The notes: generated by a model not told the origin, from the letters alone. Shown: positions 26,725 through 33,791, counted from the stretch's first letter. The stretch is DNA of 64,000 nt from an uncultured Pelagibacteraceae bacterium (GCA_902531175.1 CACADE010000004.1:1106-65105); one strand, 5' to 3'. Numbers and translations: made by a program.

Positions 26725-27158
26725 ATATAAAATTTAATGGTAAAGAATATTTATTATCTTGTGAAGATGGTCAAGAGGAACATTTGGAAGAATTATCCTT
26801 GAGTTTAAATAAAAAATTTAATGATCTAAAATTTGATCTTGGAAATATTGGAGAGAATAAATTATTACTAATATCTTCTATAAAAGTCATGGATGAGTAT
26901 TTTGAAACCAAAAAAAAAGTAGATGCGCAAAAAAAAGAGCTTCAAGAATTAAAAGAAAAATTTAAAGAATTAAAATCTTTAGTTTATCAGTACAAAGATA
27001 ACAAAGAAAATGAAATTAAAAATTTAAGCTCATCACAAGAAGAACTTGAGAATGATATTGAAAACTACAAAATAAGTTATGAAAATTTAATAGACAAAGT
27101 AACTTTAGAAATAGAAGACTTTGTCAAAAAAAATAGCACAAATACTTCTGTTTCATAA
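26712..27158 (+). CDS. zapA: Cell division protein ZapA
   Basis: VNIKFNGKEYLLSCEDGQEEHL, LLLISSIKVMDE, coiled-coil tail. Confidence 0.9.
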   Translation: MANVNIKFNGKEYLLSCEDGQEEHLEELSLSLNKKFNDLKFDLGNIGENKLLLISSIKVMDEYFETKKKVDAQKKELQELKEKFKELKSLVYQYKDNKENEIKNLSSSQEELENDIENYKISYENLIDKVTLEIEDFVKKNSTNTSVS

Positions 27159-27165
27159 AATATCA

Positions 27166-27705
27166 GTGTCAAAATTAAAATTAAGAAAAAAAATTATTAA
27201 CTTAAGAAAAAAAAAATATTTTGAAATCAAAATAGGCAATAATATTATAGATAGTTTTCATAATAAAATTAATCTATCAAAAAATAAAATTATTGGAGGT
27301 TATTTTCCAATAAATTTTGAATTTGATTGTTTGCAAATACTAAATAAATTTTATTCTCACGGTTATAGTATTTCGTTGCCAATTATAAAAAGAAATCATC
27401 AAATGGATTTTTATAAATGGAGTCCAAATGATCCTTTAACAATAAGCTCATTAGGAATTCCTGAGCCACTAAAATTGAAAAAAGTATACCCAGATATAAT
27501 ATTTGTACCAATAGTTGCTTTTGATAAATTCGGGAACAGAATTGGCTATGGTGGTGGATTTTATGATAGATATTTAGAAAAAATTTCTCAAATTAAAAAA
27601 TGTACAACAATTGGACTGGCTTTTTCACATCAAAAAGTTAATAAAATTAATGTTGAAAATTTTGATAGAAAATTAGATTTAATTTTGACAGAAAAATTAA
27701 TGTAA
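27166..27705 (+). CDS. ygfA: 5-formyltetrahydrofolate cyclo-ligase (probable GTG start 27166)
   Basis: KLRKKII..R, ISLP, GIPEP, VPIVAFDKFGNRIGYGGGFYDR, DRKLD.ILTE. Confidence 0.9.
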   Translation: MSKLKLRKKIINLRKKKYFEIKIGNNIIDSFHNKINLSKNKIIGGYFPINFEFDCLQILNKFYSHGYSISLPIIKRNHQMDFYKWSPNDPLTISSLGIPEPLKLKKVYPDIIFVPIVAFDKFGNRIGYGGGFYDRYLEKISQIKKCTTIGLAFSHQKVNKINVENFDRKLDLILTEKLM

Positions 27706-27706
27706 A

Positions 27707-28513
27707 ATGAAGATTTTATTTTTAGGTGATATAGTTGGAGATGCAGGTTTCAAATCAGTAAAAAAAAACTTGCCAAATATAGTCTCAAAAAAAGGTATAG
27801 ATTTTGTTTGTGTTAACGGTGAAAATGCAGCCAGTGAAGGTGTGGGTCTAACGGAAAATATTGCTAATGAACTTTTTAATGTAGGTGTAGATGTAATTAC
27901 AACAGGCAATCATGTTTGGGATCAAAAAGAAATTTATGAATATATAAAAACTGAAAAAAAATTATTAAGACCAATAAATATGAGTGGAAATTTACCTGGC
28001 AAAGGTTTTTCCATATTCAATTCAAAAAAAAATCTGAAAGTTGGTGTATTAAATCTTATGGGTAACGTTTTTATGAAAAAGTGTGATGATGTTTTTAAAA
28101 TTGCTACTGAATTTATTGCAGAAAAAAAAAAATCAAAAGATTATGATTTTTTAATAGTGGATTTTCATGGAGAAATAACAAGTGAAAAAATGGCTATAGG
28201 TAATCTATTTGATGGATATGCAACTTTAGTTGTAGGTACTCATACGCACGTGCCAACAAATGATGCAAGAGTCTTAAAAAATGGAACTAGCTATATTACT
28301 GATGCTGGAATGTGTGGCGACTATGACTCGGTAATTGGTATGAATACACAAAATTCAATTAACAGATTTCTAAAAAAAGAAGCTGTAAAACATTTTCCTG
28401 CCAATGGAGAAGCATCTCTGAGTGGGGTAGTTGTAGATTGCGATGTAAGAAATGGACTTGCAAAAAATATAGAGAGTTTCATTTTTGGTGGGAGTTTAAA
28501 TAACGTAAATTAA
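27707..28513 (+). CDS. YmdB/TIGR00282 family metallophosphoesterase
   Basis: LFLGDIVG, NGENAA, TTGNHVWD, VDFHGEITSEK, VGTHTHVPT, TDAGMCG. Confidence 0.92.
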   Translation: MKILFLGDIVGDAGFKSVKKNLPNIVSKKGIDFVCVNGENAASEGVGLTENIANELFNVGVDVITTGNHVWDQKEIYEYIKTEKKLLRPINMSGNLPGKGFSIFNSKKNLKVGVLNLMGNVFMKKCDDVFKIATEFIAEKKKSKDYDFLIVDFHGEITSEKMAIGNLFDGYATLVVGTHTHVPTNDARVLKNGTSYITDAGMCGDYDSVIGMNTQNSINRFLKKEAVKHFPANGEASLSGVVVDCDVRNGLAKNIESFIFGGSLNNVN

Positions 28514-28515
28514 TT

Positions 28516-29238
28516 ATGGCTGGACACTCACATTGGGCGGGTATTAAACATAAAAAAGGCAAAGCTGACAAACAGAGATCAAAAATTTTTTCTAAACTCT
28601 CTAGAGAAATCACAGTAGCCGCAAAACTAGGAGATAAGAATCCCGATATGAATTCGAGACTAAGATCAGCAATACAAGCAGCTAGATCAGCTAACATGCC
28701 AAAAGAAAATATTGAGAGAGCAATTGAAAAATCCTCTAACAATGATCAATCAAACTTTGAAAATATTAGGTACGAAGGTTTTGGACCGAGTAAATCTGCT
28801 GTAATAGTTGAAGCATTGACTGACAATAAAAATAGAACCGCTTCTAATATAAGAACAATATTTTCAAAAAATAATGGTTCTTTAGGAACCCAGGGTTCTG
28901 CATCACATAATTTTCAAAGACTGGGTGTAATTAAAATAGACAAAAATGAAATTGAACAAGATAAAATTTTTGAATTAGCAATCGAATCGGGTGCAAATGA
29001 TTGTATTTCTCGTGATGAATTTCATGAAGTGCATACGGATATAGATGAAATATATGAGGTAAAAAAAAAATTTGAAAAAGTTATTGTTAATTTTCTTTCT
29101 ACTGAAATTGAGTGGCTACCTATAAATAAAGTATCCCTTAAAGGCGAAGAAAATCAAAATATGGCAAAATTTTTAGAGACTCTTGAGGATGAGGATGATG
29201 TACAAAATGTTTATACAAATGTTAACTTTGAAGGTTAA
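28516..29238 (+). CDS. yebC: YebC/PmpR family protein
   Basis: MAGHSHWAGIKHKKG, NMPKENIERAI, YEGFGP, TDNKNRT, DDVQNVYTN. Confidence 0.95.
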   Translation: MAGHSHWAGIKHKKGKADKQRSKIFSKLSREITVAAKLGDKNPDMNSRLRSAIQAARSANMPKENIERAIEKSSNNDQSNFENIRYEGFGPSKSAVIVEALTDNKNRTASNIRTIFSKNNGSLGTQGSASHNFQRLGVIKIDKNEIEQDKIFELAIESGANDCISRDEFHEVHTDIDEIYEVKKKFEKVIVNFLSTEIEWLPINKVSLKGEENQNMAKFLETLEDEDDVQNVYTNVNFEG

Positions 29239-29736
29239 ATGATAATCGTTGGAATTGATCCAGGAATAGCAGGTGCTATTTGTTTTTTTTCTGATGGGAA
29301 AGTTATTGATGTCATTGACATGCCTACAATGGCAGAAGGGAAAAAAAATAAAAAACAAGTTAATGGTAGGCAAATTTATAATGAAATAATGCTAATAAAA
29401 AATAAATTTATGAATGAAAAAATGAGTGTAATAGTCGAACATGTTTCTGCTATGCCGGGACAAGGTGTAACAAGCATGTTTAATTTTGGACAATCATTTG
29501 GAGTTATTAAAGGCATATGTTCTGCAATGGAGCTTCCCGTTTTCTATGTTAGACCAGCAAAATGGAAAAAATATTTTAACTTAATAAATTCTGAAAAAGA
29601 CGCAAGTAGAACTAAAGTAATAGAAATGTTTCCAAAAATATCTCATAAGCTATCTAGAAAAAAAGATAACAATAAAGCCGATGCCATCTTAATTGCTCAA
29701 TACTTTGAAAACACAAGGGAAAATAACTATTACTAG
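29239..29736 (+). CDS. Holliday-junction resolvase of the RuvC fold, MOC1/phage-like subtype
   Basis: GIDPGIAGA, VEHVSAMPGQGVTSMFNFG, VRPAKWKK, KDASR, FP, RKKDNNKADAILIA; acidic residues D7, E67, D143/D148. Confidence 0.75.
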   Translation: MIIVGIDPGIAGAICFFSDGKVIDVIDMPTMAEGKKNKKQVNGRQIYNEIMLIKNKFMNEKMSVIVEHVSAMPGQGVTSMFNFGQSFGVIKGICSAMELPVFYVRPAKWKKYFNLINSEKDASRTKVIEMFPKISHKLSRKKDNNKADAILIAQYFENTRENNYY

Positions 29737-29791
29737 TGATTTAGATTTCTTAAAGTCAAATTAATGACATATTTTAATGAGAAACGATTGA

Positions 29792-30466
29792 ATGGAAGCG
29801 GATATTGCAACACAAAGTTTAGGTCTAGCTAGCAACACAGATTTTTCTTTAATAAGTCTCTTTTTAAGAGCAGATATAATTGTTAAATCAGTTATCATAA
29901 TATTAATACTCAGCTCTATTTATTCATGGGCAATAATATTCGAAAAAATAAGAATGTTCAGGAAAATTAATAAAAGCGCAGAAGAATTTGAAGAAAAATT
30001 CTGGAAATCAAAGTCTGCAGAAACATTTTATAATAGTCTACCATCAAATATTGAAGATCCTATGGCAAAATTATTTAAAAGTTCCATGCAAACAGTTATT
30101 AAAACTAGATCTAAATCAAATTTGTCTGAGAGACTGTCTAGTGTTTTAGAAGTAAATATTGAAAAACAAATGGTATCAGTTGAAAAGTATAATAGTTTTT
30201 TAGCTACTGTGGGATCAACTGCTCCTTTTATAGGTCTCTTCGGAACAGTTTGGGGTATTATGAATTCGTTTCAATCAATTGCTATTTCAAGAAATACTAG
30301 TCTTGCAATTGTTGCACCTGGTATTGCAGAAGCTTTATTTGCAACTGCACTCGGGTTATTAGCTGCTATTCCTGCAGTAATTGCGTATAATAAATTTAAC
30401 TTAGACTCTAAAAAATACGCTCAAAAATTAGAAAATTTTTCAAAAAGATTTTTATCAATAATTTAA
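29792..30466 (+). CDS. tolQ: Tol-Pal protein TolQ
   Basis: LATVGSTAPFIGLFGTVWGIM, VAPGIAEALFATALGL.AAIPAV. Confidence 0.95.
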   Translation: MEADIATQSLGLASNTDFSLISLFLRADIIVKSVIIILILSSIYSWAIIFEKIRMFRKINKSAEEFEEKFWKSKSAETFYNSLPSNIEDPMAKLFKSSMQTVIKTRSKSNLSERLSSVLEVNIEKQMVSVEKYNSFLATVGSTAPFIGLFGTVWGIMNSFQSIAISRNTSLAIVAPGIAEALFATALGLLAAIPAVIAYNKFNLDSKKYAQKLENFSKRFLSII

Positions 30467-30883
30467 ATGGCATTTAAGTTTAAAAGCTCAAGAAATGATC
30501 CTATGAGTGAAATTAACGTTACACCATTTGTTGATGTTATGTTGGTTTTGCTAATTATTTTTATGGTTACTGCGCCGTTACTTACTGTTGGTGTTCAGGT
30601 AGATCTACCTGAAACTTCCGCTGACACTCTGCCAGAGGAAAATGAACCTTTAACTTTAACAATTAATTCTAAAGGTGAAATCTTTATTCAGGAAACAAAG
30701 GTTGAATTTAATAATTTAATTGTAAAAATATTAGCAGTGTCAAATAACAGAACTGATACAAGAATATATGTTAGGGGAGACAAAGCTATTAACTATGGAA
30801 GAGTTCTTGAAATTATGGGAATGCTTTCAGGATCAGGATTTACGAAAGTTGCTTTAATATCTGAACCGAACAAAGAGAGATAA
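30467..30883 (+). CDS. tolR: Tol-Pal protein TolR
   Basis: SEINVTPFVDVMLVLLIIFMVTAP, RGDKAINYG. Confidence 0.95.
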   Translation: MAFKFKSSRNDPMSEINVTPFVDVMLVLLIIFMVTAPLLTVGVQVDLPETSADTLPEENEPLTLTINSKGEIFIQETKVEFNNLIVKILAVSNNRTDTRIYVRGDKAINYGRVLEIMGMLSGSGFTKVALISEPNKER

Positions 30884-30888
30884 AGATT

Positions 30889-31857
30889 ATGTATCGAGGT
30901 CTTTTAATCTCATCTGGATTTCATGTTGCTATTGTAATGGTAAGTATTTTGGCTTTGCCATTTGTTGCAAAAAAACCTCTGGATATTCCACCTCTTATTT
31001 CTGTTGAACTTATTCAAATAGCTGAAAAGACAAATATTCCTTTCGCACCAAAAGCATCAAAAATAATTGAGAAGGCAAAAAAAGAAAATGAAAAACTTTT
31101 ATCTGAACAGGCTCCTCCTAAAAAAGTAAAAAAAGATGAAAAAAAAGAAGTTCAAACAGATAAAAAAAAAAATAAAATTTCTAAAGTTGCATCAAAAAAA
31201 ACACCAACCAACGAAAATAAGATAGAAAAGTTAAAAAAAGAAAAATTAAATGCTGTACCTATGCCAGATGAAGATAAACAAAAAATTCAACCTAAAGAAC
31301 AAAAAAAGCAGAAACCTTCAAAAGAAATCAATGACGAAAATATCAATAAAATAGTTCAAACTAAAAAACCTATTTTAGATGAAAAAAAAGTTAAACAAGT
31401 GTCTGAATTTGAAAAAAAAGAAAAATTAGATTTAAATGAAATTGCAGCTTTAATTGATAAAAAAAGAGAAAATTTAGCAGAAACAAAAAAAGAAGTTGAT
31501 AAGATTTCTCAATCAACTGATGAAACTATGGACTATTCAAAGCTAACATTAAGTGAGGAAGATGCTTTAAAGGCTCAAATATTTACATGTTGGAGTGTGC
31601 CTATAGGTTTGCCTTTTAGTGAAGATTTATTAGTTAGAGTTAAACTCCAATTAAAACCAGACGGAACAATTGAAAAGCTTGAAATGCTAGATCATGTAAA
31701 AATGAATACACCTGGTAAAGAAAAATTTAGAACATTAGCAGATAGTGTGAGAAGAGCTATTCAGTTGTGTAATCCATTAAAAGTTCCTACAAGTGGTTAT
31801 GAAAGATGGAAAAATATGATTTTAAATTTTGATGCTCGTGATATGCTTGGAGGATAA
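30889..31857 (+). CDS. tolA: TolA-like protein
   Basis: N-terminal TM with S..H motif, K/E-rich linker, C-terminal [19 protein letters not shown]; between tolR and tolB. Confidence 0.8.
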
Positions 31858-33203
31858 TGATTAGAATTTTTAACTTAACCTTTTTAGTATTTTTCTTTTT
31901 AATAACGAAAGCAAATTCTTTAATAGAAATTGATATAACAAGAGGTAATTTAGATCCTTTGCCAATTGCAGTTTCACCATTATTTCAAGACGATAACTCA
32001 AAAAAAAATTCAATTAATGAATTAAAATTAGAAAATGTGGGTTCTGAAATTTCTTCTGTAGTAGAAAATAATTTAAAAATTTCAGGTTTATTTAATCCAC
32101 TAAGTAAAGAGGCATTTTTACAAAAACCTGATATTGCTCATTTAAAACCTAGGTTTGAAGATTGGGCACTTATTAAAGCGCAAGCTTTAATTACAGGAAA
32201 AGTAACGATTGAGAACAAAAAATTAAAAGTTGAGTTTAGACTTTGGGATATTTTAGCTGGTAGAGAAATGATGGCTTTAGCATTTACAACAGTGCCAAGT
32301 AATTGGAGAAGAGTTGGGCATATAATCTCTGATAAAGTTTATGAAAGATTGACCGGAGAAAAAGGATACTTTGATACTAGAATTATTTATGTTTCTGAGG
32401 AAGGACCTAAGACAGCGAGAGTGAAGAAATTAGCCATTATGGATCAAGATGGTTTTAATACAAAATATTTAACTTTAGGAAATGAATTAGTATTAACCCC
32501 TAGATTTAATCCAACAAGTCAGATGGTAACTTACTTATCATATTTCAAAAATCTCCCAAGAGTGTATTTATTAGATATTGAAACTGGAACACAGGAAGTA
32601 GTTGGCGATTTTCCAGGAATGACATTCGCTCCAAGATTTTCACCAGATGGAAAAAAAATTATTATGAGTTTTGCAAAAGATGGAAACTCAGATATTTATA
32701 CAATGGATTTAGAAAATAGAGTTGTTGAGAGAATAACTAATCATCCATCAATTGATACTTCGCCATCATATTCCCCAGATAATAAATTTATTACATTTAA
32801 TTCTGATAGAAGTGGGTTTCAACAAATCTATGTAATGAAATCTGATGGTTCAAATGTAAAAAGAATATCTTTTGGTAAAGGTTTGTATGGCACCCCAGTA
32901 TGGTCTCCAAGAGGTGATTTAATTGCGTTTACAAAATTACATAAAGGAAAATTTTATATCGGTGTTATGCGAACCGATGGTTCCGGAGAAAGATTGTTGA
33001 CTGAAAATTACTATCAAGAAGCTCCTTCTTGGTCTCCAAATGGAAGAGTGTTAATTTTTTATAGAGAAACTAAATCAAATGACAAAGGAGAGGGATTTAG
33101 TGCCAAGTTATGGTCTATAGATCTTACAGGATATAATGAAAGGCAAGTTCAAACAGAGACGGATGCCTCTGACCCATCTTGGTCGTCTTTATTAAGTAAT
33201 TAG
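31857..33203 (+). CDS. tolB: Tol-Pal beta-propeller protein TolB
   Basis: PLPIAV, GYFDTRI, repeated P.FSPDG / PSWSP propeller motifs. Confidence 0.95.
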
Positions 33204-33302: not shown

Positions 33303-33791
33303 ATGAATTTTAAGAAATCATTTAGAAATACTTTTCTAGTTATTTTATTAAGTTTAATCGTATCGGCTTGTGCAACGAAAAAAACCACTACTACTGTAGA
33401 GGGTCAAATGCAAGGTGATGTCTACACAGGAACTGATACAGTTAAATATTTAGCTGACGGTGTTCCAGACAGAGTATTTTTTGCGACAAACGAATCTATT
33501 TTAACAACTAAATCAAGAGACACATTAAGAAAACAAGCAAATTGGTTAAGAGAGAATTCTAGCATCAATGTTGTAGTCGAAGGTCATGCGGATGAAAGAG
33601 GAACAAGAGAATATAACTTGGCATTAGGCGAAAGAAGAGCAAATGCTGCCAAAGATTATTTGATCACTTATGGAATATCTGCTGATAGAATTTCAGTAAT
33701 AAGTTATGGAAAAGAAAGACCGGTTGACTCAGGCTCAAATCCGCTTTCTTGGTCTAAGAATAGAAGATCTGTAACCGTAAAGGCTAACTAA
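33303..33791 (+). CDS. pal: Peptidoglycan-associated lipoprotein Pal
   Basis: Lipobox VSAC; EGHADERGTREYNLALGERRA, SYGKERP, NRR. Confidence 0.95.
   Translation: MNFKKSFRNTFLVILLSLIVSACATKKTTTTVEGQMQGDVYTGTDTVKYLADGVPDRVFFATNESILTTKSRDTLRKQANWLRENSSINVVVEGHADERGTREYNLALGERRANAAKDYLITYGISADRISVISYGKERPVDSGSNPLSWSKNRRSVTVKAN

Follow-up and report, generated by a model that had tools for sequence, protein, structure and literature searches.

RuvAB is among the most conserved DNA-repair machines of bacteria, and SAR11, the ocean's most abundant group of bacteria, is known for very frequent homologous recombination. We asked what to make of a SAR11 locus in which the place of ruvC, ruvA, and ruvB is taken by a single small gene. 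The locus lies in a stretch of 64,000 nucleotides (nt) from an uncultured Pelagibacteraceae bacterium (GCA_902531175.1, CACADE010000004.1:1106-65105; this whole stretch is called the window below), and the gene in question, at positions 29239-29736 on the + strand, encodes a protein of 165 amino acids (aa) between yebC and tolQ. Taken together, the data make it likely that this protein, a member of the MOC1/phage RuvC-like family, acts as a stand-alone Holliday junction resolvase and that its gene replaced ruvC-ruvA-ruvB in an ancestor of the Pelagibacteraceae.

Family membership of the protein encoded between yebC and tolQ

An initial annotation of the window had assigned the gene to the family of chloroplast MOC1 and phage resolvases instead of canonical RuvC, on the basis of a series of short motifs. 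All of the motifs it quoted were present in the 165-aa protein, which contains GIDPGIAGA, EHVSAMPGQGVTSMFNFG, PAKWKK, KDASR...FP, and RKKDNNKADAILIA, and the assignment itself was borne out by profile searches, by the predicted structure, and by a phylogenetic tree. Among the PHROGs profiles, phrog_1770 ('Holliday junction resolvase') matched with an expect value (E) of 5.2e-35, with residues 1-159 aligned to positions 4-150 of the 158 profile positions. A phmmer search against solved structures returned NtMOC1 at E 2.7e-15 (residues 3-161) and ZmMOC1 at ∼1e-10, while the best canonical RuvC among these structures reached E 0.037. The Pfam RuvC profile PF02075 gave 17.0 bits, which is below its cut-off of 22.2, and the NCBIfam RuvC equivalog NF000711 gave 26.9 bits against a cut-off of 163. 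Pairwise identities followed the same division, with 17-21% to alphaproteobacterial RuvC, 28% to MOC1, and 35-46% to viral proteins. The protein adds a cellular member to an already known family. In the databases the gene goes by the labels 'RuvC' or 'crossover junction endodeoxyribonuclease', names that conceal the replacement.

The family is large, with 13,125 cluster representatives at E ≤ 0.001. Matching records from cultured phages numbered 126 (23-40% identity; including epsilon15, PaV-LD, and Stenotrophomonas, Pseudomonas, Caulobacter, and Microcystis phages), and among the 70 of these 126 records that were listed there was no pelagiphage homologue. At least 550 IMG/VR contigs carry family members, with identities up to 47%, and two phage records already bear the MOC1 label. 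The closest described phage resolvases, those of phrog_1770/cd22992 (Salmonella phage epsilon15 gp43, Planktothrix phage PaV-LD ORF119, Stenotrophomonas phage Bhz63 gp56; 35-47% identity), share length, motifs, and an AMPGQGV loop with the SAR11 protein. Of these two names, cd22992 is the one given in the record of a phage protein with 37% identity, and the family membership itself was derived from the phrog_1770 and NtMOC1 matches. The phage genes sit in replication/recombination modules, whereas the SAR11 gene belongs to the chromosomal core genes of a free-living bacterium, where it fills the ruvC slot. When the class was scanned with phrog_1770, the SAR11 proteins scored ∼122 bits and ordinary alphaproteobacterial RuvC 30-48 bits. 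High-scoring copies were also seen in four other alphaproteobacterial genomes, and the one examined in detail has Cro/CI-like repressors on one side and a phage AAA protein on the other, and thus lies in prophage surroundings.

Predicted structure, catalytic residues, and recognition loop

An AlphaFold2 model computed from 29 sequences had a predicted local distance difference test score of 91.6 and a predicted template modeling (TM) score of 0.88. In a Foldseek search of this model against the Protein Data Bank, ranks 1-12 were all MOC1 (TM 0.79-0.86, root-mean-square deviation 2.1-2.6), followed by a second tier of canonical RuvC (TM 0.57-0.71) and then by Lactococcus phage bIL67 RuvC, the fowlpox resolvase, and Ydc2. 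Chloroplast MOC1 (NtMOC1 6kvn/6kvo/6lct; ZmMOC1 6is8, 6jrf, 8kfr) is therefore the best solved-structure match by both sequence and predicted fold. The two proteins have the acidic tetrad and the GxDPG, WK, KDxSR, and RKKDxGRAEA motifs in common, and RuvAB is absent from plastids as it is from SAR11. MOC1 differs in being encoded in the nucleus of plants and in having an N-terminal extension.

The tetrad D7/E67/D143/D148 is intact. D7, the first predicted catalytic carboxylate (in GIDPG; codon at 29257-29259), aligned with D116 of NtMOC1 and was invariant in both of our alignments, A1 and A2. The second, E67 (29437-29439), aligned with E175 and was invariant in A2, and the third and fourth, D143 (in RKKD; 29665-29667) and D148 (in KADA; 29680-29682), aligned with D253 and E258; all four codons are on the + strand. 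In NtMOC1, D116/E175/D253/E258 form the catalytic tetrad, which is mutated in the inactive 6lct construct and whose mutation abolishes cleavage (PMC7078210). Four DEDD carboxylates on an RNase H fold are a feature of the whole superfamily, RuvC included. Canonical RuvC shares fold, tetrad, position after yebC, and presumed substrate with the SAR11 protein, and differs from it by its RuvA and RuvB partners, of which the SAR11 genome has none, as well as by the low profile scores and identities given above.

A pairwise alignment placed M72-P73-G74-Q75 (codons at 29452-29463, + strand) as the counterpart of the base-recognition loop of MOC1, Y180-P-Q-D183 in NtMOC1. In the latter protein, Y180 and D183 intercalate and read the cytosine that precedes the cut, so that cleavage occurs after cytosine (PMC7078210). 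The corresponding AMPGQGV motif, with P73 and Q75, is nearly invariant in the SAR11/phage group. Since M72 and Q75 stand where NtMOC1 has Y180 and D183, the SAR11 resolvase probably has a cleavage preference other than the after-cytosine cut of MOC1, as far as can be judged from the alignment. The protein is presumably a homodimer.

Absence of RuvABC and presence of RecG

We next turned to the genes that the window's genome lacks. This genome (G000; 1.30 Mb, 25 contigs, 96.9% complete) gave no match in profile searches for RuvA_N, PF02075, RadA/Sms, or RusA (PF05866); the RadA/Sms search matched only Lon, RecA, and DnaB. For RuvB the genome gave only generic AAA+ matches of ∼28 bits or less; two of these, at 27.8 and 25.3 bits, just reach the domain-level cut-off of PF05496, but none comes near the 299-bit cut-off of the full-length RuvB model. 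Likewise, tblastn with the RuvA, RuvB, and RuvC proteins of two alphaproteobacterial outgroup genomes (G531 and G755) had no match in this genome, and the PDDEXK-type nuclease that we describe below for the sister family was not found in it either. RecG was present and full-length, and RuvX/YqgF was present as well. Of the genes for which the initial annotation had proposed a genome search, recG was thus found, while ruvA, ruvB, and radA were not.

The same picture emerged for the order as a whole. RuvB was found in 0 of 301 Pelagibacterales genomes of at least 85% completeness, a sample that includes dozens of closed genomes and many single-contig ones at 99-100% completeness, whereas the same search was positive in 145 of 151 other Alphaproteobacteria (one per genus) and in all 10 bacterial controls. 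PF02075 was matched in 0 of 61 Pelagibacterales genomes and RecG in 61 of 61. Intact ruvAB together with a canonical ruvC elsewhere, which would have spoken against the initial annotation, was therefore seen neither in the window's own genome nor in the searched genomes of the order. With RuvAB lost and RadA/Sms not found in the window's genome, RecG is the only recognized branch-migration helicase left there.

Some irregularities in recG itself were also observed. In two closed Pelagibacter genomes the match (G101:C1:628139-629431 and G091:C1:620759-622021) is confined to the C-terminal two thirds and is interrupted by 4-5 in-frame stops, so that recG may be disrupted there or the sequences may contain errors. 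The second family of the order has an additional RecG-like helicase open reading frame (ORF) of ∼790-800 aa, divergently adjacent to recG (G037:C2:177728-178909; G038:C2:16696-17883; G039:C11:3367-4587; G040:C21:54807-55994), which may be Mfd or a paralogue. No second RecG-like match was reported for the window's own family.

Gene order and conservation

The order yebC-ruvC-ruvA-ruvB-ybgC-tolQ, cited in the initial annotation as usual for Alphaproteobacteria, was indeed seen in three alphaproteobacterial genomes (G531, G755, G559), where RuvC, RuvA, RuvB, and YbgC are recognizable within the ∼2.5 kb that separate yebC from tolQ. In the window, yebC (TACO1/YebC family; 28516-29238, + strand; Pfam PF20772 and PF01709, E 1e-53) ends in a TAA that directly abuts the ATG of the resolvase ORF (TAAATG), a GAAGG Shine-Dalgarno-like motif lies 6 nt upstream, and only a 55-nt spacer (29737-29791) separates the resolvase stop from tolQ, the first gene of the tol-pal cluster (29792-30466, + strand; Pfam MotA_ExbB, E 2.5e-37). 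These coordinates and this order agree with those first described. The spacer is too short to leave room for a remnant of ruvA or ruvB. A consensus scan of positions 27600-30000 revealed no promoter-like or terminator-like site on the + strand, and the resolvase is probably co-translated with yebC.

Upstream of yebC lie a YmdB-like metallophosphoesterase gene (27707-28513, + strand), which keeps its place 5' of yebC in SAR11 loci as well as in outgroup G531, and an MTHFS gene (5-formyltetrahydrofolate cyclo-ligase-like; 27121-27705, + strand), whose place is supported by blastp synteny with outgroup loci L047 and L049. Because G531 shares this MTHFS-YmdB pair with the window, the loci compared are clearly homologous. 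The order YmdB-yebC-resolvase-tolQ is kept across the window's genus. A sister genus within the family (g5) has yebC-resolvase-ybgC-tolQ instead (ybgC at L036:1134-1484 and L037:1134-1451), from which it follows that the replaced block was ruvC-ruvA-ruvB and that ybgC departed from the locus later, in the window's genus. The claim that ruvA, ruvB, and ybgC are all gone from the locus is thus correct for the window, but ybgC was not part of the replaced block, and a ybgC-like thioesterase gene is still found elsewhere in the same genome (C2:27061-27420, E 5e-15).

Among 280 Pelagibacteraceae genomes, 271 had a match to the resolvase, with all 7 sampled genera represented, and none of 20 genomes of the order's second family had one. 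For orthologues whose distances were unsaturated, the ratio of nonsynonymous to synonymous substitution rates (dN/dS) was 0.05-0.07; for more distant ones it was 0.07-0.15. The resolvase is therefore a core gene under strong purifying selection. There are no phage genes near it at the window locus, and its composition is host-like (30% GC for the gene vs 28% for the window). The host-like composition and the presence in all sampled genera bear out the earlier proposal that the event is old. The drafts G196 and G223 gave 3 and 2 resolvase matches, respectively, as compared to one each in all others; these extra matches probably stem from split or duplicated contigs.

Phylogenetic position

To place the SAR11 protein among its relatives, we used a maximum-likelihood tree of 64 sequences, which included SAR11, viral contigs, 3 cultured phages, 2 MOC1 proteins, the prophage copies, unnamed representatives, and 5 alphaproteobacterial RuvC proteins. 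A branch with 100/100 support parts canonical RuvC from all other sequences. The SAR11 proteins form one clade (100/97) within a star of viral sequences, with 27 of the 60 forks left open, and MOC1 is on its own long branch (100/100). The phylogeny that had been called for, with RuvC, MOC1, and phage proteins, thus set the RuvC proteins apart while leaving the order of the phage, MOC1, and SAR11 branches open. Grouping of SAR11 with the RuvC of the nearest syntenic outgroups was rejected by the approximately unbiased (AU) test (delta log-likelihood 102.6, p-AU 3.5e-6), and a nesting within alphaproteobacterial RuvC, which would have contradicted the family assignment, was accordingly not found.

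The initial annotation had also suggested that the locus matters for the origin of MOC1. The family is indeed common to both, but the bearing of the SAR11 gene on MOC1 origin appears weak from the sequences, because SAR11 and MOC1 show no sister relation in the tree and the SAR11 protein is 28% identical to MOC1 vs 35-46% to phage proteins.

Other nucleases in the same position

We then considered whether the position 3' of yebC holds other nucleases elsewhere. The second family of the order carries a different gene of 126 aa between yebC and tolQ (L032:2318-2698 on the + strand in G038; L034:1017-1397 on the - strand in G037), encoding a PDDEXK_15/Hjc-like phage-type nuclease. It scored above the Pfam cut-off for PDDEXK_15 (PF24608, 'phage putative PDDEXK endonuclease') and matched phrog_244 at E 2e-20, and residues E14, D50, E60, and K62 are invariant. 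Of 60 genomes of that family, 48 had this gene, as did all 13 of the 13 high-quality ones. Outside SAR11, its nearest relatives are encoded on contigs of marine phages, next to genes for Prim-Pol, AAA_24, and integrase, and its identity to the 'Holliday junction resolvase' of Roseobacter phage CRP-810 is 53%. The best structural matches of its predicted model were archaeal Hjc proteins, and these were weak (E ∼0.01, TM 0.40-0.48). Like the Pelagibacteraceae, this family lacks RuvB and canonical RuvC and has kept RecG. The two nucleases therefore share the yebC-X-tolQ slot, the absence of RuvABC, the retention of RecG, the affinity to phages, and the status of core gene, while their folds are unrelated.

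In two further genomes from different families, G392 (closed, 1.4 Mb) and G413 (1.4 Mb), RuvA, RuvB, and RuvC were not found, and each has a small PD-(D/E)xK gene directly after yebC (L138:1137-1505, - strand, phrog_2002 E 1.5e-8 in G392; L137:948-1454, - strand, PDDEXK_15 (PF24608) 76.8 bits in G413). The G392 ORF, which starts with TTG, overlaps yebC by 35 nt, and its true start may be internal. The PD-(D/E)xK nucleases of the three lineages resembled one another at best marginally (pairwise BLASTP E 0.002 over 41 residues, hhalign E 0.17), and they were treated as non-orthologous. The other RuvB-negative genomes of the class sample were discarded as candidates for a replacement of RuvABC: G458 is a fragmented assembly in which canonical RuvC is still present, and G384, a symbiont of 0.5 Mb, has a partial RuvC.

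At least four alphaproteobacterial lineages thus have four non-orthologous nucleases in this slot, one with an RNase H fold and three divergent PD-(D/E)xK enzymes. That each of these RuvABC-less lineages keeps one small resolvase-like nuclease there indicates a required function. As a tentative generalization, of which we are more doubtful than convinced, the site 3' of yebC may be a recurrent swap point in streamlined marine bacteria, at which the ATP-driven RuvCAB system is exchanged for a single small phage resolvase; if the handling of junctions changes along with it, this could be one mechanistic root of the high recombination-to-mutation ratio of SAR11. The relevant changes would then be that RecG alone drives branch migration and that the resolvase has another, or a less strict, sequence preference in a genome of 28% GC.

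Proposed pathway and alternative explanations

As the whole order lacks RuvA, RuvB, and canonical RuvC, we infer a pathway that leads from RecA via RecG to the resolvase. In the ancestor of the Pelagibacteraceae, the resolvase gene would have taken the chromosomal place of ruvC-ruvA-ruvB downstream of yebC. RecA would make the joint molecule, and RecG, as the sole dedicated branch-migration helicase remaining, would move or reverse the junctions. A resolvase dimer would subsequently bind the junction in its basic cleft without delivery by RuvAB, and would introduce two symmetric nicks through a two-metal site formed by D7/E67/D143/D148, as MOC1 does in plastids, which are free of RuvAB. E. coli offers an analogy for such an arrangement. 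Its RusA is a resolvase of a cryptic prophage that is normally silent and that replaces RuvABC (in rus suppressors) provided that RecG is present. The functional logic is alike, in that a phage-derived stand-alone resolvase together with RecG stands in for RuvABC, and SAR11 would resemble a natural, fixed version of this laboratory state. RusA differs in its unrelated fold and family, and in being silent in E. coli whereas the SAR11 gene is a resident core gene.

Several points weigh against this reading of the locus. A tree in which SAR11 is placed next to the whole canonical RuvC branch costs only 7 log-likelihood units and was not rejected (p-AU 0.37), and the root of the phage/MOC1/SAR11 group is not fixed by the tree. 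Of the proposal that a phage gene replaced the ruv genes in situ, the replacement of ruvC-ruvA-ruvB has stood, while the direction of transfer is argued from parsimony: one tight cellular clade faces thousands of diverse viral sequences, which makes phage-to-cell transfer the more parsimonious reading. In addition, activity in SAR11 is predicted by homology, with plant MOC1 only 28% identical, and a role as main cellular resolvase and independence of partner proteins are likewise predictions. RuvX/YqgF is present and could in principle contribute to junction processing, and junctions could also be dissolved without any nuclease.

The tree with SAR11 beside canonical RuvC is also an argument for a different history, in which the gene is a vertically inherited ruvC orthologue that diverged fast after the loss of ruvAB and merely resembles the phage/MOC1 family, or in which that family descends from such a bacterial gene. 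The identical slot, the tight coupling to yebC that is also seen for outgroup ruvC, and the common fold and DEDD tetrad would all fit such a history. However, fast divergence does not yield 35-46% identity and E 5e-35 to one other family at 17-21% identity to the parent, the nesting among alphaproteobacterial RuvC was rejected by the AU test, and the three other RuvABC-less lineages have nucleases of unrelated fold in this slot, which cannot be diverged ruvC genes. We therefore regard vertical descent as very unlikely. An assembly or detection artefact is weaker still as an explanation for the missing genes. The genome is a draft in 25 contigs and is 96.9% complete, but the slot is contiguous in the window, tblastn with the RuvA, RuvB, and RuvC of the nearest outgroup gave nothing, and the RuvB search that was positive in nearly all other Alphaproteobacteria and in every control was negative throughout the order, single-contig genomes included; the chance that the absence is artefactual is practically negligible.

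A further possibility is that the gene is a domesticated phage nuclease with another role, such as the processing of branched replication intermediates or phage DNA, or defence, and that junctions are removed mainly by RecG reversal, topoisomerase dissolution, or RuvX. The substrates of phage RuvC-like enzymes often include several kinds of branched DNA, RuvX is present, RecG is universal in the order, and the resolvase function of the SAR11 protein is assigned by homology. On the other hand, the gene occupies exactly the ruvC slot and is a core gene under strong purifying selection, and no other recognized resolvase (RuvC, RusA, or the PDDEXK type of the sister family) was found in the genome. 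Furthermore, RuvX of E. coli acts mainly in 16S rRNA maturation, and each of the four RuvABC-less lineages has one small resolvase-like nuclease in the slot. A role outside junction resolution is, in our view, unlikely, and the replacement of RuvABC by a stand-alone resolvase is the explanation that we favor.

Implications and relation to published work

If correct, this explanation means that the textbook account of late-stage recombination is not valid for a large share of the planet's bacterial cells. SAR11 would then provide a natural counterpart both of the E. coli 'ruv rus' suppressor state and of junction resolution in chloroplasts, which proceeds without RuvAB. The swaps at this slot in streamlined lineages point to a strong selection to keep exactly one resolvase and to shed ∼2 kb of motor genes, and they offer a testable example of non-orthologous displacement driven by streamlining.

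A search of the full-text literature found no paper on SAR11 without RuvAB or with a MOC1-type resolvase. One paper on SAR11 recombination leaves Ruv unmentioned, and one table of a Red Sea metagenome study includes a 'putative Holliday junction resolvase' among the core genes of SAR11 but does not comment on it. Thus, the order-wide absence of RuvAB and RuvC, the in-situ replacement by a MOC1-type protein, and the unrelated phage nucleases in the same slot of neighboring lineages are apparently undescribed in the searchable literature.

Downstream genes

The ORFs that follow tolQ complete the tol-pal cluster in the window: tolR at 30467-30883, tolA at 30889-31857, tolB at 31857-33203, and pal at 33303-33791. 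The assignment of tolQ itself, like that of the two genes upstream of yebC, was based on the ORF list, and for tolQ it was supported by blastp synteny with the outgroup loci.

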